Origin: Gammaproteobacteria bacterium
Lineage (GTDB): Bacteria > Pseudomonadota > Gammaproteobacteria > Enterobacterales > Alteromonadaceae
DNA: 64,000 nucleotides
Assembly (NCBI GenBank): GCA_018825965.1
Contig: JAHKAA010000051.1
Coordinates: forward strand, 28,032 to 92,031
Direction: 5' to 3'
The notes beneath the pieces were generated by a model. That model had not been told where the DNA came from. It ran no database searches and saw nothing but the letters and a program-made list of their open reading frames with translations. The position numbers were made by a program, and so were the translations under genes. Shown here piece after piece: positions 674-12,935 of this stretch. Position 1 is the stretch's first letter; each line of letters opens with the position of its first letter.

Positions 674-1945
674 TTAGTCATGCCCAAGCGCTAAACGTCT
701 TGCTGCTGGTTGCACAAAATGATTCCACCACAGCCCCAGCATTAACAGCAACGCAAAACCTGTCGCCAAGTAAAAACCATAACGCACATCACCCATCGCA
801 TCGCCCAACAGGCCCATCAGTAAAGGTCCTAAAGCGGCGGCCAGAGCGGTAAAAGCCAGAATTAAACCTGCAGCAGCGCCATGCTGCTGACGCGGAAAAC
901 AGCTGATGCCTTTAGAATTTAACGTGGGGTACATCATGGACATAAAAAGCCCTGACAGCGGCATCAGCCATAAAGCGGCGGCTACGCCAAAATACATACT
1001 CAAAGCAAAACAGATAAAAATAGCACTGCCAAACCAGGCCAATAAAGCCGTCCAGTTAAAACGCAGTAGCAACCATTCGGCAAGGAAACGCCCTGCGGTA
1101 CGCAGAATAAAAAACACTGTAATAGCATGGGCGGCCAGCACAGTGAAGTTGCCATCATAACTTTGCAATAAGGTGGGCAACCAAACAAAAATAGCGACTT
1201 CAGTGGCGACATAACAAGCGATAGCCAGCGAAAACCCCAGCGCATGTTTATCTTTCACCAAGGCCAGGCTTTGCCAAATTGAACTTTGTTGTTGTGGCTG
1301 ATAAGCCGGATAATCCAATCGTAATGCCATCACCAATAACAGGGCACAAATCAGCCCGGCCAACAGATAAAGCTGAGTCCAGTCCAGTGACGCCGCAATC
1401 AATAAACCGACCAGAGCAGGGCCAAAGATGGCACCTAAGCCAAAAAAACCTTCCACCCTGTTCATCAGTCTGGTGTGACTGTTGGCATCAGGGCTGACAT
1501 CGCCCACTAAAGCCAAAGCCCCGGTTTTAAACAAACCTATACTTAAACCACTGACGCCCAACAGCAGCAGGTAATACAAAAAACTTTCGCCAAAAATAAA
1601 GGCCACACAAGCAATAGCATACAAAGCCAAACCGGCAAGAATGACTTTTTTCCGGCCAAAACGGTCGGCATACCGGCCTAAAAACAAGCCGGATAAACCA
1701 ATAAATAACATAGGCACATAATGAAAAGCTGCGGCTTCGGTCAGGCTCAACTGAAACTGCGCGACGACCTGCGGAATAATGACGCCCACAGCATCTGTGG
1801 TCATAGCAAAAACAAAAAACATCAGGCAGGTCATCCATTTCACCTGAGTAAAAGCACTGGGCGGCAGCGCTGTTGTAGGTGAAGGTGGCGAACTGGCTTC
1901 TAAAGTCTGAACTTGTTGCATTGGTAGTACCCTGTCATAACGCAT
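674..1945 (-). CDS. MFS sugar transporter (FucP/GluP-like)
   Basis: About 12 hydrophobic segments, MFS motif A (GRYADRFGRKK), and adjacency to a GH97 gene. True start may be MQQ at 1921. Confidence 0.85.
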   Translation of the reverse strand: MRYDRVLPMQQVQTLEASSPPSPTTALPPSAFTQVKWMTCLMFFVFAMTTDAVGVIIPQVVAQFQLSLTEAAAFHYVPMLFIGLSGLFLGRYADRFGRKKVILAGLALYAIACVAFIFGESFLYYLLLLGVSGLSIGLFKTGALALVGDVSPDANSHTRLMNRVEGFFGLGAIFGPALVGLLIAASLDWTQLYLLAGLICALLLVMALRLDYPAYQPQQQSSIWQSLALVKDKHALGFSLAIACYVATEVAIFVWLPTLLQSYDGNFTVLAAHAITVFFILRTAGRFLAEWLLLRFNWTALLAWFGSAIFICFALSMYFGVAAALWLMPLSGLFMSMMYPTLNSKGISCFPRQQHGAAAGLILAFTALAAALGPLLMGLLGDAMGDVRYGFYLATGFALLLMLGLWWNHFVQPAARRLALGHD

Positions 1946-2314
1946 GCGATTTTATCGATGCTGATTTTTATCAGGAAGTACAACCCCAATCAGCTTAAGG
2001 CTGAGTGTAGTCGGCTTCCATGGTATCCGGCATGCGTTACCCTCCCCAGGGCACAATGACAACGTCATCCGGCATGTCAGATTATTTCTGTTTATTTGAG
2101 CTTTAAAACTACAACTTAATCGTTTAAGTGGCAATAAAAAAATTCAACTATGGGGTAAATTTATTTCAGCCAGGGCTGGGGCATGTGTACGCTAAGCAGG
2201 TATCACCAAAGGATCCTGTAAGTAATACACATGCCTCTCAGCTCTGTTTATCTTCCTAAAGATTTGATGGCGGCCTGGAGTACAATCTGTTATCAACATT
2301 GGAGGCTCTCTAAA

Positions 2315-2358
2315 TGGGTCTGATCTGACAAAAAGCCTGAATGCAGATCAGTACCCCA
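2315..2358. repeat. REP-like palindromic element, GGGTC(A/T)GATC family
   Basis: TGGGTCTGATCTG...CAGATCAGTACCCCA inverted repeat; the same core occurs at 4173-4187 and 51002-51044. Confidence 0.5.
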
Positions 2359-2383
2359 ATTTACTTTAAGCGAGTGATGACAG

Positions 2384-3274
2384 ATGAAAAACAAGCCGAC
2401 GATCAGCAGCGTAGATTATGCCGTAGCCCCGGGCACCAAACTTGATTTGCACCAGCAGGCTACAGTGGCAGAACCACTCTACAGCTCTTCAAAAGACTAT
2501 AAGAAACAACTGAGCGCCAGCACCAAAAAACTGAAGAAAGCTCAGGAGCTGTTTTATGCCGACAACAGTTATTCTTTGCTGATCATTTTTCAGGCGATGG
2601 ATGCAGCAGGTAAAGACGGCGCTATTCGCCATGTGATGTCGGGCATTAACCCACAAGGCTGTCGGGTACAGAGTTTCAAACACCCAAGTAGCACTGAACT
2701 GGATCACGATTTTCTCTGGCGTAGCCACTGCGCCCTGCCTGAGCGCGGTCAAATTGGTATTTTCAACCGTTCTTATTACGAAGAAGTGCTGATTGTAAAA
2801 GTGCAACCCCAGCTATTAGAGGCGCAAAAACTGCCTTACAAAAACCTGAACTCCGGGCCTTTCTGGCGTGATCGCTACCGTTCTATTGTTGCATCTGAAG
2901 CCCATCTGGTACGCAACGGCACTCGTGTCATCAAGTTCTTTTTGCATCTGTCTAAAGAAGAACAATGCCGCCGTTTTCTCGACCGCATCGACAACCCCAA
3001 CAAAAACTGGAAATTCTCCGAAGCCGACACAGCACAGCGCCAACACTGGGACAGTTATATGAGTGCCTATGCCGAGTGTTTAAGCAACACCAGCACCAAA
3101 GTTGCACCCTGGTATCTGATACCGGCCGATGATAAAAAAAATGCCCGCTTAATCATTTCCAGCATTATTAACGAAACTTTGGCAGGACTGAATTTAGCTT
3201 ACCCACAAACCACTGATGCACGCCGGGCAGAGTTAGAGGAGATCCGCACTAAGTTATTGCAGGGTGAGCTTTAG
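2384..3274 (+). CDS. ppk2: Polyphosphate kinase 2 family (polyP:nucleotide phosphotransferase)
   Basis: Walker A QAMDAAGKDG, IFNRSYYEEVL, KFFLHLSKEEQ, KNWKFS and APWYLIPADDK motifs. Confidence 0.93.
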   Translation: MKNKPTISSVDYAVAPGTKLDLHQQATVAEPLYSSSKDYKKQLSASTKKLKKAQELFYADNSYSLLIIFQAMDAAGKDGAIRHVMSGINPQGCRVQSFKHPSSTELDHDFLWRSHCALPERGQIGIFNRSYYEEVLIVKVQPQLLEAQKLPYKNLNSGPFWRDRYRSIVASEAHLVRNGTRVIKFFLHLSKEEQCRRFLDRIDNPNKNWKFSEADTAQRQHWDSYMSAYAECLSNTSTKVAPWYLIPADDKKNARLIISSIINETLAGLNLAYPQTTDARRAELEEIRTKLLQGEL

Positions 3275-3485
3275 TTTAAGTGGCAGGGAGTTAGAGTCGG
3301 CTCCCCTATTGGTTAGTGCGATATACAGTATTAACTTTTGTGCAAGAGGCAATTATGACCTGGTCCTGGCTTTTGTCGCTTAAATCAGACTTTAATAACT
3401 CAAACCGTGGGGTAAAGGGCTAGACCTGACACCGAGTATTCGCTAAGAACATTCCTTTTAATTGTATTTTAAATCAAAACAGCTG

Positions 3486-3509
3486 TGCGGAGGGCTGTCG
3501 CCCTCCGCA
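3486..3509 (-). terminator. Hairpin downstream of the 3549-3911 gene
   Basis: TGCGGAGGGC-tgtc-GCCCTCCGCA, a 10-bp perfect stem 40 bp after the stop codon. Confidence 0.6.
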
Positions 3510-3548
3510 TGTCCACATCGAGAATTAAAATTAGTCATGAATTGACCA

Positions 3549-3911
3549 TTATGGCACAGGGGTGAAAGTTAATGTCATTGAGCCTGTGTTGTCTGATGAA
3601 GTAACTTGATCAACTATAAAAGCATATATTGGCTGGCCAGCAGTGACGTTCATAGTGGTGCCTTCTGCAGTATTGGCAGTGTAAAACCATCTAAAATAAT
3701 CACCTGAAGCCAAGGGCGCGGTGTTAAATAGTAAAACTTGATTTAACGGCCATGTTGATCCGCTATAATTCACGTCTGACACTAAACTGACGGATACTTG
3801 TCCGGTTTCAGGAAAGGTCACGGAAGGAGCTGCTGACCCGGGTAATGTTATGTTTTGAAGATTAATTGTTTGTGTGCCTAGTATGGTTATTGTTTGTGTC
3901 TTATTTGCCAT
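3549..3911 (-). CDS. Small beta-rich hypothetical protein (120 aa), LecA/PA-IL-like lectin candidate
   Basis: ATG at 3911 preceded by AAGGAA. T/S/V-rich with no signal peptide. C-terminal IYAFIVDQVTSSDNTGSMTLTF resembles the LecA Ca2+/sugar loop. Confidence 0.6.
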   Translation of the reverse strand: MANKTQTITILGTQTINLQNITLPGSAAPSVTFPETGQVSVSLVSDVNYSGSTWPLNQVLLFNTAPLASGDYFRWFYTANTAEGTTMNVTAGQPIYAFIVDQVTSSDNTGSMTLTFTPVP

Positions 3912-4079
3912 ATCGGTCCATTCCTTGAAGTTTGAAGTACGCGACCAACGCAAAAGTATGCGATAGCGCTATTAAAGCTAGCTAGCGTTTTCCTTTTGTC
4001 AACAAAATAGGAAAAATAAAAAAGCAGAATGGCAACAAAACAGTGACAGGTCTTGCATCTTGTCCGCTATATTAAGGAC

Positions 4080-4189
4080 AGATCTGATAGCTATTTTCTC
4101 TCACTTTTTCCGTTTTTATTTTCGTTAAACTCATTGAAACTACGTCAAAAAACTATTTTGGGGCAAGGAGCAAGATCAGACCCCAAAGT
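4080..4189. repeat. ~110-bp repeat, copy A (copy B at 6573-6681)
   Basis: Shared AGATCT..CTATTTTCT, exact 26-mer TTTTATTTTCGTTAAACTCATTGAAA, and TATTTTGGG...CCCCAAAGT hairpin. Confidence 0.8.
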
Positions 4190-4190
4190 T

Positions 4191-4255
4191 CTGATGCACG
4201 CCGGGCTGAGTGAGAAGAAGTCCGTACTAAGTTATTGCAGGGTGAGCTTTAGTTT
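4191..4255 (+). pseudogene. Duplicated 3' end of ppk2 (copy of 3213-3277)
   Basis: 65 bp with 59/65 identity to the ppk2 3' end, including its TAG stop; one internal TTA>TGA change. Confidence 0.9.
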
Positions 4256-4617
4256 TGGTGCCTGGAAGCTGGGGGCGGCTGGTCATATCCGCCCATAAAT
4301 ACAACCGCTGTAGTAATAACTAAAATTTGTTCTGTAGTGATAAGGGCAGCGTCCAGATCGTTATTCAACAATTCAGGCAAGTTATCGCTAAGCAGCTCTA
4401 CATGGTCGGCACCATCAGCTTCATAATGCCTGACGAAATTGATACATGACTCCGATTGTCTGGCTTTTTGCTCCAGACAACTTGCTGCCAGAGTAGACAA
4501 CGTCTCCATGTTATATAGCACCGCATCCCAATCTACTTCCTGTTTTGCTTTGCTGGAGCAAGAGGCAACCAGAGCTGTATAGAGTAACATCAGAAAAAAT
4601 TTTAAGCTTTGGTTCAA
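4249..4617 (-). CDS. Integron cassette gene: predicted lipoprotein, 3' end cut off at the ppk2 duplicate
   Basis: GGAGG then TTG at 4617, lipobox LVASC, preceded by the attC-like 4630-4720 element. The ORF runs into the ppk2 repeat. Confidence 0.6.
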   Translation of the reverse strand: MNQSLKFFLMLLYTALVASCSSKAKQEVDWDAVLYNMETLSTLAASCLEQKARQSESCINFVRHYEADGADHVELLSDNLPELLNNDLDAALITTEQILVITTAVVFMGGYDQPPPASRHQN

Positions 4618-4629
4618 GCTTCCTCCAAA

Positions 4630-4720
4630 ATACAACGATCAACTAAAGGTCGCAAATGCCAAAGGTGCGCCATGTATGCGTTCCAGCGAACGAAGTGAGT
4701 GACTTGACGTTTTGTTAACT
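4630..4720 (-). other. Degenerate attC site (91 bp)
   Basis: Minus strand reads AGTTAAC-AAAAC-GTCAAG...CCTTTAG-TTGATC-GTTGTAT, with internal CACTCACTTCGTTCGCTGG typical of attC stems. Confidence 0.6.
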
Positions 4721-4770
4721 GCCATGCGAACTCCTTTGTTTAATTTTATTCGGGATAAGAGCGGGCCTTG

Positions 4771-5220
4771 TTATAGCTGTTTTTCACGTTGAAGCATATC
4801 ATCTAAAAAGGGGGAAACTTTTTGCATGTACTCATAACCAAATTTAGTATAGTCCGCGTTAATTTCCGGCAAAAGCGCTTGGTACTTTCTGCCTGTTGGG
4901 GTTTTCAAAAAGTCTTCAGGTCTCCCAGCTTTAAAGAAGTTTATAAGCTCAGTAGTTTCATTTTCAGTAAAGCGCTCAGAGTAAATTGGGGCTAAACTTT
5001 CTCTTAATTTACTCCAGGCAAAATATTTATTTTCCCAAGCTTCAACAACAGCCCTATGTTGAGATAATTCAGGAGTCTTAGAGATCATTACCTCTGTCAT
5101 CAGGCCTTGATGTTTTGCAAAATACTCTCTAGCTCCATTTACCTCAAGTAGTTCATTAGTAGCAGGTTCCGCTAATACGCAAAATGAACATAGTGTAAGT
5201 ATCAAATAAAGTAGTTTCAT
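4771..5220 (-). CDS. Integron cassette gene: secreted hypothetical protein (DUF2059-like)
   Basis: Signal peptide and YSERFTENET..LINFFK motif. The stop codon lies inside inverse core GCTATAAC and the cassette begins at GTTATAAC. Confidence 0.65.
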   Translation of the reverse strand: MKLLYLILTLCSFCVLAEPATNELLEVNGAREYFAKHQGLMTEVMISKTPELSQHRAVVEAWENKYFAWSKLRESLAPIYSERFTENETTELINFFKAGRPEDFLKTPTGRKYQALLPEINADYTKFGYEYMQKVSPFLDDMLQREKQL

Positions 5221-5233
5221 AGTTCCTCTAACA

Positions 5234-5370
5234 GTTATAACACCGAATTTAGTCGCAGTTTAAACATTAAATTTTTATGCAATACTCTTGTGCAGCAAAA
5301 CCACAAAAAGGCGACCTACAAATTGTCGAAGTCCGCGAAGCGCAAGATACCCGGACGACTTGTTATGAAT
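5234..5370 (-). other. attC site, long type (~136 bp), partly degenerate
   Basis: Minus strand reads TTCATAAC-AAGTC...CTAAAT-TCGGT-GTTATAAC, immediately after the stop of 5371-5745. Confidence 0.65.
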
Positions 5371-5745
5371 TTATAGTTGCCACACTATTTCATTTCGTAG
5401 CCGTTCAACAACCTTGACCTTTGGGCCTGCTACCGCAGCATAGACAAAGGTACTTGCACCTACCGAAGTGCATTTAATTACAGCACGATTATTGCTGTAG
5501 TTTCCGTATACATAGCTACCATTTTTTACTATTTCAATAAAGCCAAGAGATTCAAGTATTTCTGTACCTTTATCCGCACATGCTTCAGCAGGAATTTTAA
5601 GCATTTTATGGTCAGACCAAATGTGAGGCGCAAATTCCCTCTGAATAGTGCGAACTTCGCCCCCATTCTCCTGGTTGGTGTCTTTGGTTGCATTGGTAGC
5701 GCAGCCACCAAGTAGAATTAAAAAAACAACAGCAGCTAGCTTCAC
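5371..5745 (-). CDS. Integron cassette gene: hypothetical lipoprotein
   Basis: Lipobox LGGC; bounded by attC-like sites on both sides. Confidence 0.7.
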   Translation of the reverse strand: MKLAAVVFLILLGGCATNATKDTNQENGGEVRTIQREFAPHIWSDHKMLKIPAEACADKGTEILESLGFIEIVKNGSYVYGNYSNNRAVIKCTSVGASTFVYAAVAGPKVKVVERLRNEIVWQL

Positions 5746-5761
5746 TATTTTATTTCCCTAT

Positions 5762-5815
5762 GTCAGAACGTCGAGCTAAGCAGAAGTGTGCGGTGCTTCA
5801 GCGACTTGTTAGAAT
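5762..5815 (-). other. attC site, short type (54 bp)
   Basis: Minus strand reads ATTCTAAC-AAGTC-GCTGAAG...CTTAGC-TCGAC-GTTCTGAC. L'' has 7 nt with an extra base and L' has 6 nt, as in canonical attC. Confidence 0.75.
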
Positions 5816-5818
5816 AAT

Positions 5819-6289
5819 TTAAAATCTACCAGACTTTATGTCTAATATTTTCAATTTCCACTTTTCAGCTTTAAGATTATTATCCAGCTCAATAGTCAGA
5901 TAAGAGCTTTGATTCGGTTGCACCAGCCATGAATAATCTTGCCCAGTTTTAACAAAAAGTAGTTTTCCTGCTGCATCAAAAACTGAAACTTCGTAACTAA
6001 TATTGTGCCATTTAGTATCTGATTTATTAGCAATTAAATAATTTAATGCAAGCCTGTTATGTTCACCTGGCGAGATCCCTATCTCTTTCACTTCAAACAG
6101 ATGTTCATTACCTGGATAGTTTTTATTAAACCAAATTCCCATGGAGTAGAACATAACGGGAATAAACACCAAAGGAAATATAAAGCCAAATATCTGCGGA
6201 TTTTTGTACCAGATTTGAAAGGACTGGCAATACGGACATTTACTAGCAGCGTTATCGATTTCTTTAATGCAGGACTTACAGGTTTTCAT
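5819..6289 (-). CDS. Integron cassette gene: hypothetical membrane protein with N-terminal Zn-ribbon (CxxC..CPYC)
   Basis: AAGGAG RBS and one TM helix. The cassette starts at core GTTAGAAT (6314-6321), the exact complement of its inverse core ATTCTAAC (5808-5815). Confidence 0.7.
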   Translation of the reverse strand: MKTCKSCIKEIDNAASKCPYCQSFQIWYKNPQIFGFIFPLVFIPVMFYSMGIWFNKNYPGNEHLFEVKEIGISPGEHNRLALNYLIANKSDTKWHNISYEVSVFDAAGKLLFVKTGQDYSWLVQPNQSSYLTIELDNNLKAEKWKLKILDIKSGRF

Positions 6290-6572
6290 TTAATACTCCT
6301 TGCTTCGGCTGGGATTCTAACAATCCATTCTCAAAGGCAGTCCGCGCAAGTCGAATTTTTTGCCTTCTCTTATAATTTCCACTCAAATAAAATTAACGTC
6401 AATGAAACTCTATTTCAATATATTTTTCTAAAGCCACCAAATTTATGTCCAACAAAATTTATACAGCCAGCACGCTAGTTGTTCTTAAATTAACTCATAT
6501 GCAACAGTTACACATTTAACCTGAGGTTTTAACCGAGCTACCATCAGAATCGGGCCTTGCCATCTGAGGAAT

Positions 6573-6681
6573 AGATCTATTAACTATTTTCTATGGTTTT
6601 ATCTGCTTTTATTTTCGTTAAACTCATTGAAATTAAACTAATAAGTTATTTTGGGACGAGGTGTGAAACCAGCCCCAAAGT
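6573..6681. repeat. ~110-bp repeat, copy B (copy A at 4080-4189)
   Basis: Same 26-mer and TTTTGGG...CCCCAAAG hairpin as copy A. Confidence 0.8.
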
Positions 6682-6684
6682 CCC

Positions 6685-7431
6685 TCACTGTATCTGTGTT
6701 GTTTTTTCAATAACCACTTTCACTTCGTCCCCAGAGACAGCCAACCTCATCATTCCTACTTCGACATAACGATTAAAATCATTGACTGCAAAGTGCTGCA
6801 ACCTGGCCTCAAGGGTTGAAGGGGCAACCCACTTCGCACTATGAACCCCAAAATCTGTCTCATTCCTTTCCAATAACAATGTGAGCTTGTCGTCATTTAA
6901 CCGATAGAGCTTAAGTATAGTGCGGTCAAAGGTGTCTGAATTCCGACTATCCAGATACTCAAATACCAACTGACTATCAGGTGAAAACACCAGATGCCCT
7001 GTGAACTCCGTGGTAATTTTTGTTTTGCGATCGATCAGTAAATAACGCCACCATTCCCAACGCGCTTCAAAGATCACGCAGTACCTTTTAGTGTGATCAC
7101 AACCCCACAATGAGAAATTCTGATAACGCTCAGCATCGTCTGCAATAAAGTCTTGCAGCAACAGTTTGCAGCCATCAAGGTAAGCCAATGTCACTTTGCC
7201 CTGTTTTTTCTGATAGATATCCGCAAAAAGCACCGCTATTTGTTCAGGCCCCTGCTCTTTTGTGCAGTGCTCATAATCCTGAAATTGCTGATAAGTAGGT
7301 TGCACAGGCAAGGAATCACACAATTGCTGCAGCGTCATATGTCTGACTGGTTCGGCTGCCTGAAGCACAGTACTGCTAATCAATAAGCCAAGCAGACCTA
7401 CGTAGGTTATTAGGTGTTGAATTTTCATCAT
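6685..7431 (-). CDS. Secreted hypothetical protein
   Basis: 248-aa ORF with a signal peptide ending LQA-AE; no family recognised. Confidence 0.7.
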   Translation of the reverse strand: MMKIQHLITYVGLLGLLISSTVLQAAEPVRHMTLQQLCDSLPVQPTYQQFQDYEHCTKEQGPEQIAVLFADIYQKKQGKVTLAYLDGCKLLLQDFIADDAERYQNFSLWGCDHTKRYCVIFEARWEWWRYLLIDRKTKITTEFTGHLVFSPDSQLVFEYLDSRNSDTFDRTILKLYRLNDDKLTLLLERNETDFGVHSAKWVAPSTLEARLQHFAVNDFNRYVEVGMMRLAVSGDEVKVVIEKTTQIQ

Positions 7432-7462
7432 TGTTAGTCCTTTAACTTCAGTGAATCTGCCC

Positions 7463-8278
7463 CTAAGGCAACTGAATTTTATAATCCTTCATATGCTTTA
7501 AATAAGCGACCAGATGGTCGATATCCTCTGCGCTAAACTGCTCAAAAGTCGGCATTTTGCTTTTGTATCTGTAGCCGGATGCATTGGGAATAAAGGCTTT
7601 TAAGTGTTCGTCAGTCCAATATTCGGTTACGTTTTTTGGCGCATTCAGCTCAGGGCCTAAGTCGCCACCTTGCAGGTTAATCGAATGACAGCTGATGCAG
7701 TTTTGTTTAAACAGCAAAAAGCCCTGATAAGCAGCTGAGCTTTGGGCCGTGTTGGTTGGATAGAGTTTGGGATAACGTTGCTGAAAACTCACCAGCTCTA
7801 GCTTTACTAACTGATAAGGCCAGGGTCTGGTTTTTTCTACCGCTTTGCCTTGCCTCCAGACTAAATAAAATGGCGCTGGTGATACCATAGCTTTGCCCTG
7901 AGCTACAGGGGCAAAATCAAAATCTTTCTTGCCCGTTTCGGCAAATACCAGCACAGCCTGGTCGTCCAGCAAATATTCAAGCGGCATACTGGGCGCATAG
8001 CCATCAGAAGCCGTCAGCACTACTTCATCTGCAGCCTGGCCTGGCTTGTAACCAGCAGCTTTTAGCAGTTGCAGCAAAGACACGCCTACAAAGCTTTTAT
8101 CGCTGTTGTAGACAGGGTCAAATAACTTGATTTGCTGCACTGGCACTTTTTGTTTAATGTCCAGAAGACTCCAGCGCAGCTTTTGATCAGGCAGCTGAAT
8201 ATCCAGACTTTGGGCATAAAGAGGTGAAGATAAAACACCAAATAGCAAAAATAACACCAATGCCAAAAGTCTGTTCAT
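7463..8278 (-). CDS. Periplasmic c-type cytochrome with N-terminal molybdopterin-oxidoreductase-like domain
   Basis: Signal peptide, single CISCH heme motif with GPELN and distal MP, and N-terminal LTASDGYAPSMP...PFYLVW. Confidence 0.75.
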   Translation of the reverse strand: MNRLLALVLFLLFGVLSSPLYAQSLDIQLPDQKLRWSLLDIKQKVPVQQIKLFDPVYNSDKSFVGVSLLQLLKAAGYKPGQAADEVVLTASDGYAPSMPLEYLLDDQAVLVFAETGKKDFDFAPVAQGKAMVSPAPFYLVWRQGKAVEKTRPWPYQLVKLELVSFQQRYPKLYPTNTAQSSAAYQGFLLFKQNCISCHSINLQGGDLGPELNAPKNVTEYWTDEHLKAFIPNASGYRYKSKMPTFEQFSAEDIDHLVAYLKHMKDYKIQLP

Positions 8279-8332
8279 GGCTGCTCCTGCCTGCTCTGTT
8301 GATAAAAAGATACTGTGCTGAATTGTCCGAAT

Positions 8333-9172
8333 TCAGTCTAGCTCTACCACAGCCAGCAGTGCTTCATGATCAGAAGGATACAAACCGTTGTATCTTCTGT
8401 TATCCACCTGATAACTGGCGACCTGCAGGTTTTTACTTACAAAAATAAAATCTATGGTTTGGCTGGTATTATTGGGCTCACGGCCAAACCCATTAAAAGT
8501 GCCAACATTTTTGGAAAGCTTATCTTTCGCCACCAAAGCACTGTCATGTAAAACTTTACTTAAAGCCTGATAAGGTGCGCTGTCGGGTTCCACATTAAAG
8601 TCCCCTGTCAGCAGCACTTTGCTCTGCTTGGGTAATTTCTCCACTTCGGCCTTTAGCAACAAGGCACTTTGCAGCTGAGCCTGCTTCCCCATATGGTCAA
8701 AGTGAGTATTCAGAAAATAAAAACTCTGGTTCGATTTCAACTCTTTAAACTGAGTTTTGGTAAAAGTGCGGTTCAGCTTTGCGTCCCAACCTTTTGATAC
8801 CTGGTCCGGCGTTTCAGACAACCATAAAGTTTTTGCTGACAACAGCTGCAGCTTGTCTTTGCGATAGAGCACAGCTGTGCTCTCACCTTTGGTTTTGCCG
8901 TCGTCCCGGCCTTCGCCAAACCATTGATATTGCGGCAACATAGCCACTAAATCATGCACCTGAAACAGTTCTGCTTCCTGCAAGCCAATTAAATCCGGTT
9001 GTTGAGTCTGAATTAAATGCGCCAGTAAAAACTTACGTTCAGGCCAATACTGCGGTGTGCCTTCAGCTTCACATAAACCACAACGAATGTTGTAGCTCAT
9101 TAGTTTTAATGATTCGGCTTGTGCCAATGAAGGAAAGACCAGCGAGGATAAAATAAGCAGCAAAAATTTCAT
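8333..9172 (-). CDS. Endonuclease/exonuclease/phosphatase family protein, secreted
   Basis: MSYNIR, DLIGLQE, NTHFDH, LTGDFN, IDFIFV and PSDH motifs. Confidence 0.9.
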   Translation of the reverse strand: MKFLLLILSSLVFPSLAQAESLKLMSYNIRCGLCEAEGTPQYWPERKFLLAHLIQTQQPDLIGLQEAELFQVHDLVAMLPQYQWFGEGRDDGKTKGESTAVLYRKDKLQLLSAKTLWLSETPDQVSKGWDAKLNRTFTKTQFKELKSNQSFYFLNTHFDHMGKQAQLQSALLLKAEVEKLPKQSKVLLTGDFNVEPDSAPYQALSKVLHDSALVAKDKLSKNVGTFNGFGREPNNTSQTIDFIFVSKNLQVASYQVDNRRYNGLYPSDHEALLAVVELD

Positions 9173-9213
9173 GCAGTTAGCCTGTTCAGGTGAAAGGAAG
9201 CTCTAAAACTACT

Positions 9214-10296
9214 TTAACAACTTTGCCGGATTATTAATTCAGAAGGCATTAGAAGGTCAGCTTCCAGCTCACCTGATAACAGCATACGGGCAGCAGTACG
9301 GCCTTTTTCGTCGCTGTGCTGAGCAATAGTGGTCAGGCTGGGGTAAAAACGTTCAGCTTCTTCAATGCCGTCAAAACCAACCACTACTAAGTCCTGCGGT
9401 ATTTTAATGTCCAGCTCACGCGCTACCGCCATGGCAGCCAAAGCAATACGGTCACTCATACACAACAGCACTTGAGGTCGTGGAAATTGAGTTAAAGCTT
9501 CACGGGCTGCTACTAAAGCAAAATTATGGGTATTCAGCGGAATATGCCAGACCGCATCAGCGGGTAAATCGCGGCCTTGTTCTATAGCAGCGGCTAAATA
9601 ACCGTCCAAACGGCGGCGGGAAATGGCCTGTTCTGTGCTGTACAGCTCGTGTGGCTGAATACGGCACACTCTGTCCGATTCAATTAAACGTAAGCCCAGC
9701 ACCGCCACTTTGCCCTGCATTTTAGCAAAGGCATGTTCGGCAATACGATGGGCTGCAGCGTAGTTATCGACGTTCACCGACACCACATTATCCAGATTGC
9801 AGTCGACTGTGATTAACGGCTTGCCACTTTTAACAATGCGGTTCAGTTGCTCAGGATTGCTGGGCGCACCATACAAAATAAAACCATCGGGCACGGCTTC
9901 AGCACTGCTGCTGCTGGTGTTATGCCGGCCGGATAACAACAGCATATCCATGCCATGTTCCTGCAATACTTCAGCCACACCTTTGATAAATTGGTTGGCA
10001 ACAGGGTCGCTGACCGAATACTCCAGGGTGTCTGACAATAAAACTGCCACTATGCCAGAGCGGCCAGTGCGTAAACTGCGGGCTGCGGCATTAGGGCCGT
10101 CGTAGCCCAATTCAGTGCATTGCTGCAAAATACGCTGGCGTAATTCAGGGGAAAGTTGATCAGGTCTGTTATAGGCATTGGAAACAGTAGCGACTGAAAC
10201 CCCCAGATAAGAAGCCACGGTTTTCAGATTTAATTTTTTTGGTTTTTCTATTGCCGACACAGCTATAACACCCTGTTTTAGTTCAGGCTTTATCAT
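9214..10296 (-). CDS. LacI-family transcriptional regulator (maltose-regulator-like)
   Basis: HTH LKTVASYLGVSVATVSNAYNRPDQLS, hinge AARSLRTGRS and IPQDLVVVGFD. Start may be slightly downstream. Confidence 0.9.
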   Translation of the reverse strand: MIKPELKQGVIAVSAIEKPKKLNLKTVASYLGVSVATVSNAYNRPDQLSPELRQRILQQCTELGYDGPNAAARSLRTGRSGIVAVLLSDTLEYSVSDPVANQFIKGVAEVLQEHGMDMLLLSGRHNTSSSSAEAVPDGFILYGAPSNPEQLNRIVKSGKPLITVDCNLDNVVSVNVDNYAAAHRIAEHAFAKMQGKVAVLGLRLIESDRVCRIQPHELYSTEQAISRRRLDGYLAAAIEQGRDLPADAVWHIPLNTHNFALVAAREALTQFPRPQVLLCMSDRIALAAMAVARELDIKIPQDLVVVGFDGIEEAERFYPSLTTIAQHSDEKGRTAARMLLSGELEADLLMPSELIIRQSC

Positions 10297-11594
10297 GCCT
10301 GTTCAGTCACAGAATTGCCAGCGCCAGAGGCAGGCAGCAGAAGACTGACCAATAAGCCCGCGCCCTGATTTTGCAGGCTTAAACTGCCGCCATGCGCTTC
10401 GGCTATATCACGGCACAAAGTTAAACCTATGCCAGAGCCATTTTCCTTACTGGTATAAAAAGGCACCATGGCATGAGTCAGAGCTTCGTTTGTCATGCCC
10501 CCGCCTGCATCCTGAATACGGATCAGCAGTTGATCCGGCAATTCGGTAAAACTCAATTGAATTTGCTCGGGCCTGGAGCCTGATTCGTGGGCGTTTTTCA
10601 ACAGGTTTAATAGCAGCTGTGATAACTGCAATGAGTCTGCTAACCAACTACGCTGTGGTAAATCGCCTTCCAGCTCAAACTCGTATTGATCCTGCAACTG
10701 ATTAATCAGCCTGGCCCAGTGCACTGGTGCTAAAACAGGAGTGGGTAATTTAGCAAACTGAATATAAGACTGTAAAAACTGATTCAGATGCTGCTGGCGT
10801 TCACTAATAGTCTGGAAAATTTGTTGCAGCTGCTTATGTTGCAGTTCGGTTGCCACTAACTGGCCTGAGTAAGCTAATGAGGATAAAGGTGCCAGCGTAT
10901 TATTCAGTTCATGCCCTATCACCCGCAGCAGTTTTTTCCACGCTTTCACTTCTTCCCTATGGATTTCGCGGGTCATAGGTTTTAACAGATACAGCTGATG
11001 TGATTTTTGGTTCAGCGAAAAAAAGCTGACCGACAAATGCCAAATCGATGCGGGTTCGCCCAGATACAACAAACCTTGTTGTCCATTTTCAATAGCCAAA
11101 GCCAGCTCAGGTAACTCTGCTGTTAACTCTGAAAACAACAGACCTTCAAACTTACGGCCCTGATGCAGCAATACCCGGGCCGCCGGATTGCTCATCAAAA
11201 CCCGACCGGTTTGGTCTGTTAACACCATAGCACTGGGGCTGGATTGCAGAACTGTATCCAGCAGCAGTTCGCGCTGATACAAAGTGGCGCGTTCTTGCCG
11301 CAATTGCGCTGACATTTGCTGCAATACTTCGGCTAAAGGTGTGAGTTCACGTAAAAGATGGCGGTTGGCATCGACGTTAAAACTGCCGTCCTGCAAGTTC
11401 TGGGCATGTAAATTCAGTGCTTCAATTTCCTGTAGCAGCGGTTTAAGTGCCCAGTGCAAGACGAAGATGATGAGCAGATCAAACCCAAAAAAAAGCCCAT
11501 ACCAGAGCGGTTCAGCCTTCAGATAAGACAACAACAAAAAAGCCGGCACCAGTAAGGCCAGCACCAGCAGATATAAACGCCGGATCAGCTGCAT
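10293..11594 (-). CDS. Sensor histidine kinase (PAS, NtrY/NtrB-like)
   Basis: Two N-terminal TM helices, H-box GHELNNTL, N-box NLLKNAHES and G-boxes DAGGG / GSGIGL. Confidence 0.9.
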   Translation of the reverse strand: MQLIRRLYLLVLALLVPAFLLLSYLKAEPLWYGLFFGFDLLIIFVLHWALKPLLQEIEALNLHAQNLQDGSFNVDANRHLLRELTPLAEVLQQMSAQLRQERATLYQRELLLDTVLQSSPSAMVLTDQTGRVLMSNPAARVLLHQGRKFEGLLFSELTAELPELALAIENGQQGLLYLGEPASIWHLSVSFFSLNQKSHQLYLLKPMTREIHREEVKAWKKLLRVIGHELNNTLAPLSSLAYSGQLVATELQHKQLQQIFQTISERQQHLNQFLQSYIQFAKLPTPVLAPVHWARLINQLQDQYEFELEGDLPQRSWLADSLQLSQLLLNLLKNAHESGSRPEQIQLSFTELPDQLLIRIQDAGGGMTNEALTHAMVPFYTSKENGSGIGLTLCRDIAEAHGGSLSLQNQGAGLLVSLLLPASGAGNSVTEQA

Positions 11595-11600
11595 AAGCTC

Positions 11601-12935
11601 TTACACAGGTTCAATGCCATAAAACTCCATTCTCCTGTACAGCGCTTGCCGGCTAATACCCAATTGTTTAGCTGCCCTGGCTACCACACCCTGAGCCTGC
11701 TGCAGCGCCTGTTCTATCTGTTGTTTATCCAAATCATCCAGCGTTTTTTTCGCTGTAGTGTGCTCCGCAGGTAAAGCTAAATCTGCCGCATCAATTTCAT
11801 CTGCTAACGTCAGTAATAAAGCACGCTGACATAAATTTTGCAGCTCACGCACATTGCCAGGCCAGCTATAACTTTGCAGCGCCTGCTCTGCAGCTTTACT
11901 TAAGCTTTTTTGGCCTGCTAAAAAATGCCGCGCCAAAGGCACAATATCATCCACTCTGTCTTTGAGGGCTGGTAAATGCAGCTGTACCACATTGATCCTG
12001 TAATACAAATCCTGGCGGAAATGCCCTGCGTTAATGGCATGGCTTAAATCAGCATTAGTCGCACTGATAATACGCACATCCACTTTGCGGGTTTGACTGG
12101 AGCCTAAACGTTCATACTCTCCGGTTTGCAGCACGCGCAACAATTTCATCTGGCCTGATAACGACAAATTGCCGATTTCATCCAGAAATAAAGTACCACC
12201 ATCTGCAGCTTCAAAGCGACCAATACGGGTTTTAGTCGCGCCGCTGTAGGCACCGGCTTCGGCACCAAAAAGTTCGGCTTCCATTAAATCAGCCGGTAAA
12301 GCGCCCATATTTACTTTAATCAAAGGCTGCTGCTTACGCTTTGAATTGGCATGCAATACCTGAGCTATACCTTCTTTGCCAGAACCATTTTCCCCCGTAA
12401 TCAGCACTGCGGCGTTACTTGGAGCCAGTTGTAATGCCATGTGAAGCAGTTGCTCCATAGCCGTACTGGCAAAAACTAAGCCACATAAATCTTTACCGGC
12501 AAACACACCTAACCTTTCCTGCTGCTTGCGCTCAGCTTTTAAGTTTTGTTCGGTCAGTTGTTTGATTTTTAGTGTGTTGGCGACAGTGGTCAGCAAACGC
12601 TGATCGTCCCAGGGTTTGGCTATATAGTCGGTGGCACCGGCTTTCACCAGTTCCACCACCATATCCAGATGAGTCCAGGCCGTGAGTAATACCACAGGGA
12701 TGGCCGGGTGATCAGAGCGCAGTTGATAAAACAGTTCTTTGCCCTGAACACCACTCATTTCGCCCTGAGCAAAGTTCATGTCCTGTAAAATCAGGTCTAT
12801 AGATTGCTGCTGCAAAATACTTTTGGCGACACCAGGCTGCTGCGCCATAAACACCTGATACCCCTGCAACTGAAACAGGGTCATCAGGGCGGAACAGACC
12901 GCCTCGTTATCATCGATGACCAGTATTTTTTTCAT
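11601..12935 (-). CDS. Sigma54-dependent response regulator (NtrC family)
   Basis: Receiver domain, GENGSGKE, ELFG..GAYSGA, LFLDEIG, WPGNVRELQN and C-terminal Fis HTH. Confidence 0.93.
   Translation of the reverse strand: MKKILVIDDNEAVCSALMTLFQLQGYQVFMAQQPGVAKSILQQQSIDLILQDMNFAQGEMSGVQGKELFYQLRSDHPAIPVVLLTAWTHLDMVVELVKAGATDYIAKPWDDQRLLTTVANTLKIKQLTEQNLKAERKQQERLGVFAGKDLCGLVFASTAMEQLLHMALQLAPSNAAVLITGENGSGKEGIAQVLHANSKRKQQPLIKVNMGALPADLMEAELFGAEAGAYSGATKTRIGRFEAADGGTLFLDEIGNLSLSGQMKLLRVLQTGEYERLGSSQTRKVDVRIISATNADLSHAINAGHFRQDLYYRINVVQLHLPALKDRVDDIVPLARHFLAGQKSLSKAAEQALQSYSWPGNVRELQNLCQRALLLTLADEIDAADLALPAEHTTAKKTLDDLDKQQIEQALQQAQGVVARAAKQLGISRQALYRRMEFYGIEPV

Follow-up and report, generated by a model that had tools for sequence, protein, structure and literature searches.

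A small, partly decayed integron cassette array without a local integrase in a groundwater Rheinheimera

Sedentary chromosomal integrons carry homogeneous attC sites, as in the VCR type of Vibrio and the Xanthomonas types, and the IS1111-attC insertion sequences and class 1 integrons flanked by miniature inverted-repeat transposable elements (MITEs) are likewise known systems. The locus compared with them here is a small, partly decayed cassette array in a 64-kb window (the whole stretch analyzed, 64,000 nucleotides of contig JAHKAA010000051.1 from a groundwater Rheinheimera). Its closest described counterparts are attC site clusters that have no integron integrase (CALINs), defined as groups of two or more attC sites that share a strand and lie within 4 kb, with no integrase nearby, in work that also describes attC homogeneity within an integron (PMC4889954). 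CALINs are an already known and fairly common element type, whose origin and activity are still debated; they may be either dead remnants or reservoirs served in trans. The insertion of cassettes at attG sites is a further route, leading to CALINs and to single attC sites without an integrase (SALINs) (bioRxiv 10.1101/2022.09.11.507474). We assign the window segment with high confidence to the CALINs, with three attC sites and no integrase nearby; what is new here is one further example.

Like the published CALINs (PMC4889954), the array is small, has no intI pseudogene nearby, and carries cassettes in which Pfam and NCBIfam scans found no named resistance family. It differs from them in starting at a conserved non-attC region, where a GTT is joined to different cassettes in four species, in containing a 52-nt attC site with an internal deletion, and in having a last gene without attC. 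With sedentary chromosomal integrons it shares long (about 130 nt) attC sites of a single family, a chromosomal location, and ORFan cassette genes, many of which encode exported proteins. In contrast to those integrons, the window has no integrase and only three sites, and its attC family spans many genera instead of being species-specific, with integrases 35 to 76% identical to IntI1.

The array and its cassettes

The array is chromosomal, with a cytochrome c gene on one side and PPK2 on the other. The PPK2 gene (2384-3274) encodes a protein 95% identical to that of Rheinheimera soli. The sequence corresponds exactly to contig JAHJVU010000011.1 of assembly GCA_018828435.1, and this contig was found in four groundwater metagenomes. 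Segments 674-3347 and 7460-11375 are 87 to 90% identical to R. soli; the interval between them has been replaced except at 4041-4173 and 6318-6497, and its GC content is 0.34 to 0.42 over 3250-7500 versus 0.46 to 0.50 in the flanks. Ten Rheinheimera loci were compared with the cytochrome c gene as anchor; the content of the cytochrome c-PPK2 interval is different in every species, and in three other species the same interval holds attC matches of 20 to 22 bits (model R2, described below) together with different genes.

Four co-oriented minus-strand open reading frames (ORFs), named g4, g3, g2, and g1 in reading order, had been reported in the first-pass annotation, and all four are present (Table 1). 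Upstream of the first cassette, the order is a conserved 180-nt region, a MITE, g248, and the cytochrome c gene. Three attC sites are clustered on the minus strand within 4 kb, the arrangement that defines a CALIN. A complete integron, with intI, a divergent attI, and the cassette promoter Pc by the first cassette, is not present here, there being no intI. Cassettes 1 to 3 qualify as integron cassettes; g1, without a 3′ attC, does not.

Table 1. Coordinates of the array and adjoining features in the window (R2 and R3, attC covariance models described in the text)
Feature	Position	Strand	Description
D1a	4047-4190	-	About 140 nt, MITE-like, with terminal inverted repeats; PPK2 side of array
PPK2 3′-end relic	4191-4255	+	65 nt; overlaps g1 stop and marks old g1/PPK2 junction
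g1	4249-4635	-	128 aa as longest ORF; terminal gene after attC-3
attC-3	4630-4720	-	91 nt, degraded family member; R3 19.6 bits
Cassette 3	4760-5240	-	Begins GTTATAAC, carries g2, ends in attC stub CTATAACAAGGC
g2	4771-5220	-	149 aa, signal peptide, Pfam DUF2059 (E = 3e-9); TAA stop inside R″
attC-2	5235-5368	-	134 nt, full-length family member; R3 83 bits, R2 8.9 bits
Cassette 2	5241-5768	-	Carries g3, ends in attC-2
g3	5371-5745	-	124-aa lipoprotein, lipobox LLGG/C
attC-1	5763-5814	-	52 nt; R2 20.7 bits, R3 29 bits
Cassette 1	5769-6321	-	Begins GTTAGAAT, carries g4, ends in attC-1
g4	5819-6289	-	156 aa: zinc-ribbon-like N terminus (CxxC...CxxC), one membrane helix, C-terminal domain
Conserved noncoding region, about 180 nt	6322-6497	-	Ends at cassette insertion point G6321/TT
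D1b	6545-6679	-	More decayed copy, 73% identical to D1a; cytochrome c side

The ends of the cassettes agree with one another as expected of circular elements. The first cassette opens with GTTAGAAT (6321-6314), the exact complement of ATTCTAAC (5815-5808), a match of 8/8; the second cassette reaches 6/8 and the third 7/8, and letter-by-letter inspection upheld all three counts of the first-pass annotation. In total, 12 of 15 variable positions agree (P ≈ 1e-5 at p = 0.25 per position, 0.018 at p = 0.5).

Independent occurrences of the cassettes elsewhere have the same boundaries. Homologues of g4 are rare (7 among 5.8 billion proteins), and in the metagenome contigs L116 and L117 a 79% match to 6321-5805 runs from exactly GTTAGAAT to just past R″. 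In L116, a family attC of 113 bits stands immediately upstream of g4, and g4 is followed just downstream by the R″ start of its own attC. A family attC also adjoins the g4 homologue of L118, and in L118 and L114 the homologue stands among small co-oriented genes. The g3 protein family has 73 members, and the 84% nucleotide match (81% protein) to g3 in L107 is confined to 5765-5364, from R′ to R″. A g2 relative in Shewanella mangrovi was also considered and set aside, as its ordinary chromosomal context is uninformative. That the segment is a cassette array without an integrase, as the first-pass annotation proposed, is thus supported by both checks that it had named: covariance models built from foreign attC sites (R2 and R3) match at the claimed sites, and a cassette homologue, g4 in L116 and L118, adjoins a family attC elsewhere.

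With two lipoboxes, one signal peptide, and one membrane helix among them, all four products are plausibly envelope proteins. No named resistance or defense family was found among the cassette genes in Pfam, NCBIfam, and PADLOC scans, and the NCBIfam and PADLOC scans gave no function for six small proteins of the locus.

The attC sites and their family

We searched for attC sites with covariance models built from sites outside the locus. An IntI1 query (100% identical to annotated plasmid intI1 genes) led to a collection of class 1 attC sites gathered from eleven class 1 integrons; model R1 was built from six such sites and R2 from 23. Because R1 and R2 detected only attC-1 in the window and missed the long family sites of L116 and L118, a family-specific model was needed. 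R3 was therefore built from 29 family attC copies from other genera, none of them from the window or the cytochrome c locus. Window-wide searches with R2 and R3 used default filters.

R3 matched all three sites on the minus strand. In a 241-kb search space, attC-2 scored 83 bits (E = 4e-21; local E = 8.5e-23), attC-1 scored 29 bits with 82 model positions skipped (E = 3e-5; local E = 6.7e-7), and attC-3 scored 19.6 bits (E = 0.018; local E = 3.8e-4). R2 matched attC-1 at 20.7 bits (E = 0.026 in 208 kb comprising the window and Rheinheimera loci; 6e-4 locally), second in that search space after a 22.3-bit match at 11821-11897 of the Rheinheimera locus L086. With filters off, R2 gave one more match of 20 to 21 bits each in R. 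soli and Rheinheimera sp. A13L, within the cytochrome c-PPK2 interval. No other match to R2 or R3 was found in the 64-kb window at E ≤ 10, and Rfam gave no match there at gathering threshold. As a control, R2 was run on 45 kb of sequence from Rheinheimera and metagenome loci picked blind to attC content, where it reached at most 10.6 bits; outside the arrays within array-bearing loci it reached at most 12.6 bits. The ends of the model matches fall within two bases of the sites claimed at 5762-5815, 5234-5370, and 4630-4720, on the strand of the genes.

The window sites belong to a widespread family. A pattern taken from 5275-5327 and run on reference genomes returned more than 120 loci, of which 120 (L120-L239; e.g., L149, L157, L173, L196, and, for R. 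lutimaris, L168) were examined; they include Cellvibrio, Undibacterium, Uliginosibacterium, Alishewanella, Shewanella sp. HN-41, and Rheinheimera lutimaris. Several copies, 400 to 1,600 nt apart, are often present, and 19 of the 120 loci encode IntI homologues 35 to 76% identical to IntI1. One of the 19, in R. lutimaris, is a complete integron: its intI lies at L168 4312-5283, and the opposite strand carries small ORFs. The 29 diverse copies align over about 131 nt with 80% mean identity, and their common fold is that of a canonical attC, in which compensatory changes occur both in the L box and along the long stem (pairs 14-128, UA:11/CG:11; 19-124, GC:19/AU:8; 57-114, GC:14/UA:12). For a homogeneous attC type, such a range across Gamma- and Betaproteobacteria is unusually wide.

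The three length classes of attC in the array had been read as a sign of mixed donors. This is not supported: all three sites match R3 and so belong to one family of about 130 nt in three states of preservation, the short ones being deletion or decay derivatives. The full-length member is attC-2, which has R″ TCATAAC and R′ GTTATAA, retains five of six pairs in the L box (two of these are G-T), and shows some departures from consensus; its core (5275-5327) is 83% identical to the attC sequence just upstream of g4 in L116. In attC-1, the outer elements are R″ TTCTAAC with spacer AAGTC, and spacer TCGAC with R′ GTTCTGA; the inner elements are L″ GCT-G-AAGC, with one extra base, and L′ GCTTAGC, around a 13-nt loop. 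It departs from the RYYYAAC/GTTRRRY consensus at base 1 of R″ and bases 4 and 7 of R′. By its sequence, attC-1 is a family attC minus about 82 central positions. A contig from another metagenome (X6) joins 5292-5329 to 5783-5812, so that these parts are contiguous within a full-length copy, which confirms attC-1 as a full-length site whose center was deleted. As a natural 52-nt attC with only R and L boxes, it offers a possible test of the requirement for the central stem. In attC-3, only the R boxes are clear (R″ GTTAAC, R′ GTTGTAT); in marine metagenomes, its core (4671-4707) is found again at high depth, with flanks that vary. A 28-codon ORF, MAVNKTSSHSLRSLERIHGAPLAFATFS (4725-4639, minus strand), with an AAGGAG ribosome-binding site overlaps attC-3.

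The site after g2 is reduced to a stub, CTATAACAAGGC (4776-4765), consisting of R″ and a spacer that match the family consensus. The truncated site placed at 4770 by the first-pass annotation thus comes down to this stub, which is too short for statistics. Contigs of three other metagenomes break at 4759/4760, where segment 4759-4226 (attC-3 and g1) follows a copy of the repeat D1 (described below), and these breaks support a junction at this point.

The candidate insertion point and the search for an integrase

The array begins at the conserved noncoding region of about 180 nt, which is 77 to 78% identical in R. soli (L088), Rheinheimera faecalis (L085), and a metagenome-assembled genome (L082). 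In a four-way alignment, homology stops at GTT in all four genomes and unrelated sequences follow, the junctions in the four lineages reading GTTAGAA, GTTAAAC, GTTATGT, and GTTCTGT. Integrase-mediated insertion leaves breaks exactly at G/TT, and the region therefore appears to act as an insertion site of attI-like kind or as a favored attG; we regard it as a candidate orphan attI-like or attG-type site. Its recognition by an integrase is inferred. R3 found no attC match within it. A promoter and a short leader ORF may also lie in the region. A leader-like ORF at 6290-6386 (minus strand) with a conserved KRRQK..RLA peptide also occurs at L088 10920-10990 and L085 11920-12282; its start codon is TTG in the window and ATG in the relatives, and the ORF of R. 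faecalis is fused to another of 120 aa.

This arrangement resembles attG insertion (bioRxiv 10.1101/2022.09.11.507474) in that chromosomal cassettes occur without an integrase or a recognizable attI, the GTT junction lies in ordinary double-stranded sequence, and expression would rely on outside promoters. It differs in that the window site appears to have been used in at least four lineages, and this repeated use would make it more attI-like than a random attG.

No integrase was found at the locus, in agreement with the first-pass annotation. Searches by tblastn with IntI1 and five family IntI proteins returned, in the window at E ≤ 1, a 22-residue chance match and otherwise no integrase or remnant; profiles intI_Cterm and PF00589 were not run on six-frame translations. 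In the ten syntenic Rheinheimera loci, the same six queries found nothing at E ≤ 1. Contigs about 82% identical to the intI of R. lutimaris (on L168 4258-5284) occur in groundwater runs X1 to X4, the four samples in which the window contig was found.

Decay, rearrangement, and origin of the array

R2 and R3 searches of the window found no attC downstream of g1, which ends against the 65-nt PPK2 relic followed by a MITE, so the fourth gene, previously counted as a cassette gene, is instead terminal or resident and does not make up a complete cassette. Its start is likely nearer MLLYTALVASC, which gives a lipoprotein signal (LVAS/C). In Rheinheimera sp. A13L (L087 12748-13127), a homologue with 94% nucleotide identity directly abuts PPK2, with a degenerate attC upstream (20.6 bits, R3), and R. 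soli 4138 (L081) has a 37-nt g1 relic at PPK2. The window relic shows 88% mean column identity to the resident PPK2 3′ end (3205-3290) and is 83 to 90% identical to the corresponding ends of PPK2 in four Rheinheimera loci. It differs from the resident end (3213-3279) at several positions, which implies that g1 was imported with a neighboring fragment from another Rheinheimera lineage. The A13L homologue abutting PPK2 and the relic here therefore make g1 the former terminal gene of an arrangement like that of A13L, brought in with a piece of its neighbor. A sub-threshold match of g1 to the EexN entry-exclusion lipoprotein family (19 bits; cutoff, 33) probably reflects only the lipoprotein N terminus.

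The array is bracketed by the two D1 copies in direct orientation. Three further copies (L086 13118-13265, L086 14552-14696, and L088 12338-12471) bring the total to five in three genomes. Terminal inverted repeats of 14 to 26 nt are present in four of the five and are not detectable in D1b; no target-site duplication was recognized at the D1 copies. In L086, one copy lies inside an attC, and in L227 an attC is interrupted by a similar end. D1 inside attC in L086 and the D1 pair around the window array resemble the MITE-flanked integrons mentioned above, and the g4 cassette of L116, which lies between two IS110-family transposase genes with a family attC upstream, resembles the IS1111-attC elements. 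Unlike those systems, D1 encodes nothing, has no demonstrated relation to IS1111, and has yielded no target duplication.

How the array arose can be weighed against these observations. We give about even credence to its having arisen at an insertion site served in trans, as against being a fossil integron. Under this proposal, circular cassettes would have been inserted singly at the GTT ending the 180-nt region by an integrase encoded elsewhere, which would recombine the folded attC bottom strand with the double-stranded target in trans. The promoterless cassettes g4, g3, and g2 would draw their transcription from the 180-nt region, or else, by read-through, from g248 and the cytochrome genes, which have the same orientation. 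The array would now be decaying, with one attC deleted at its center, one cut to a stub, and one degraded; the two MITE copies and the PPK2 relic would mark later rearrangement, and at most the first two cassettes would likely still be excisable. More tentatively, and with somewhat less than even confidence, the 180-nt region could be an orphan attI-like platform in continued use by a Rheinheimera integrase encoded elsewhere, the array being a living satellite. If so, turnover of the first cassette occurred independently in four or more lineages without an integrase there, which would make the locus a natural case of repeated trans-served capture at a single chromosomal hot spot and possibly an intermediate between attG and attI. 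On any reading the locus provides a natural comparison, one GTT with four different first cassettes in four related species and no local integrase, beside the sister species R. lutimaris with its complete integron of the same attC family.

Several observations weigh against the explanation favored here, that of a CALIN filled at a site served in trans. Whole-locus homologous replacement could also account for the differences between species. No resemblance was seen between the 180-nt region and any known attI, or between it and the intI-proximal regions of the 120 family loci; a promoter and terminator scan gave no enrichment over shuffles and no promoter signal above chance, and no RNA runs contain window sequence. 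The intI-like contigs of the groundwater runs stand at 0.46 to 0.81 of the depth of the window contig across the four samples and may belong to another population. Among the sites themselves, attC-2 is nearly unseen by the class 1 model R2, whose 8.9 bits come from the R boxes and spacers only, and attC-3 is weak at its R3 score. The first-pass annotation had named folding of the bottom strands as a further check; single-strand DNA folds of the intergenic spacers were no more stable than shuffles (z = −1.1 to +0.7). Taken alone, fold energies do not discriminate in this case.

The chief rival holds that the array is the fossil of a complete sedentary chromosomal integron, whose intI, upstream of a 180-nt attI, was lost before these Rheinheimera diverged and whose arrays were later swapped by homologous recombination of the whole locus. 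We consider this rather unlikely. Integrase loss is one of the listed routes to CALINs (PMC4889954), the flanks are 85 to 92% conserved and could support homologous replacement, the attC sites are in decay, and the foreign PPK2 relic (4191-4255) is a neighboring segment imported from another lineage. No intI remnant, however, occurs in any of the ten Rheinheimera loci, 95% of CALINs have no intI pseudogene nearby (PMC4889954), and breaks placed exactly at GTT in four lineages are the signature of site-specific, not homologous, recombination. It is far less probable that the two D1 copies carried 4047-6679 into this site as a composite unit containing the insertion region, the cassettes, g1, and the PPK2 relic. 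The direct copies do bracket exactly the array and the foreign PPK2 fragment, and D1 lies inside or beside attC in L086 and adjoins the g1 unit in other metagenomes; but the pair is old, since D1b retains no inverted repeats and only 73% identity to D1a, and no target-site duplication was identified. Moreover, the platform needs no two D1 copies, since R. soli has the 180-nt region with a single D1 at the locus. Scarcely credible is an ordinary small genomic islet without any integron, in which the palindromes are terminators or repetitive extragenic palindrome-like repeats. The fold energies, no better than shuffles, would fit it, as would g2 and g3 homologues that are ordinary chromosomal genes (Shewanella mangrovi; Oleispira and Pseudomonas proteins). 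Against it stand the 83-, 29-, and 20-bit matches to a model from attC sites beside integrases in other genera, the 20.7-bit match to the class 1 attC model, the R″/R′ complement rule, and the exact cassette boundary in common with L116; the attC matches and this boundary already contradict it.

Further observations concern the neighborhood of the array and of its relatives. In L116, the IS110-family transposase genes on both sides of the g4 cassette lie at 1038-1997 and 2889-3848, an arrangement that recalls the attC-targeting IS1111 group. In the window, 6685-7431 encodes a secreted-looking 248-aa protein without a family match; this segment is variable among Rheinheimera species and has no attC. 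The same is true of 3549-3953, which encodes a 134-aa protein without a family match and is followed by a strong hairpin (3486-3509). A conserved noncoding element of about 200 nt (GGCGTAGCA...CTCGCCTTTCGCTATCCCTGCGAAAGACGG), absent from the window, lies just 3′ of the cytochrome c gene in three other loci (L082 10850-11000, L086 10850-11000, and L087 10840-10990).

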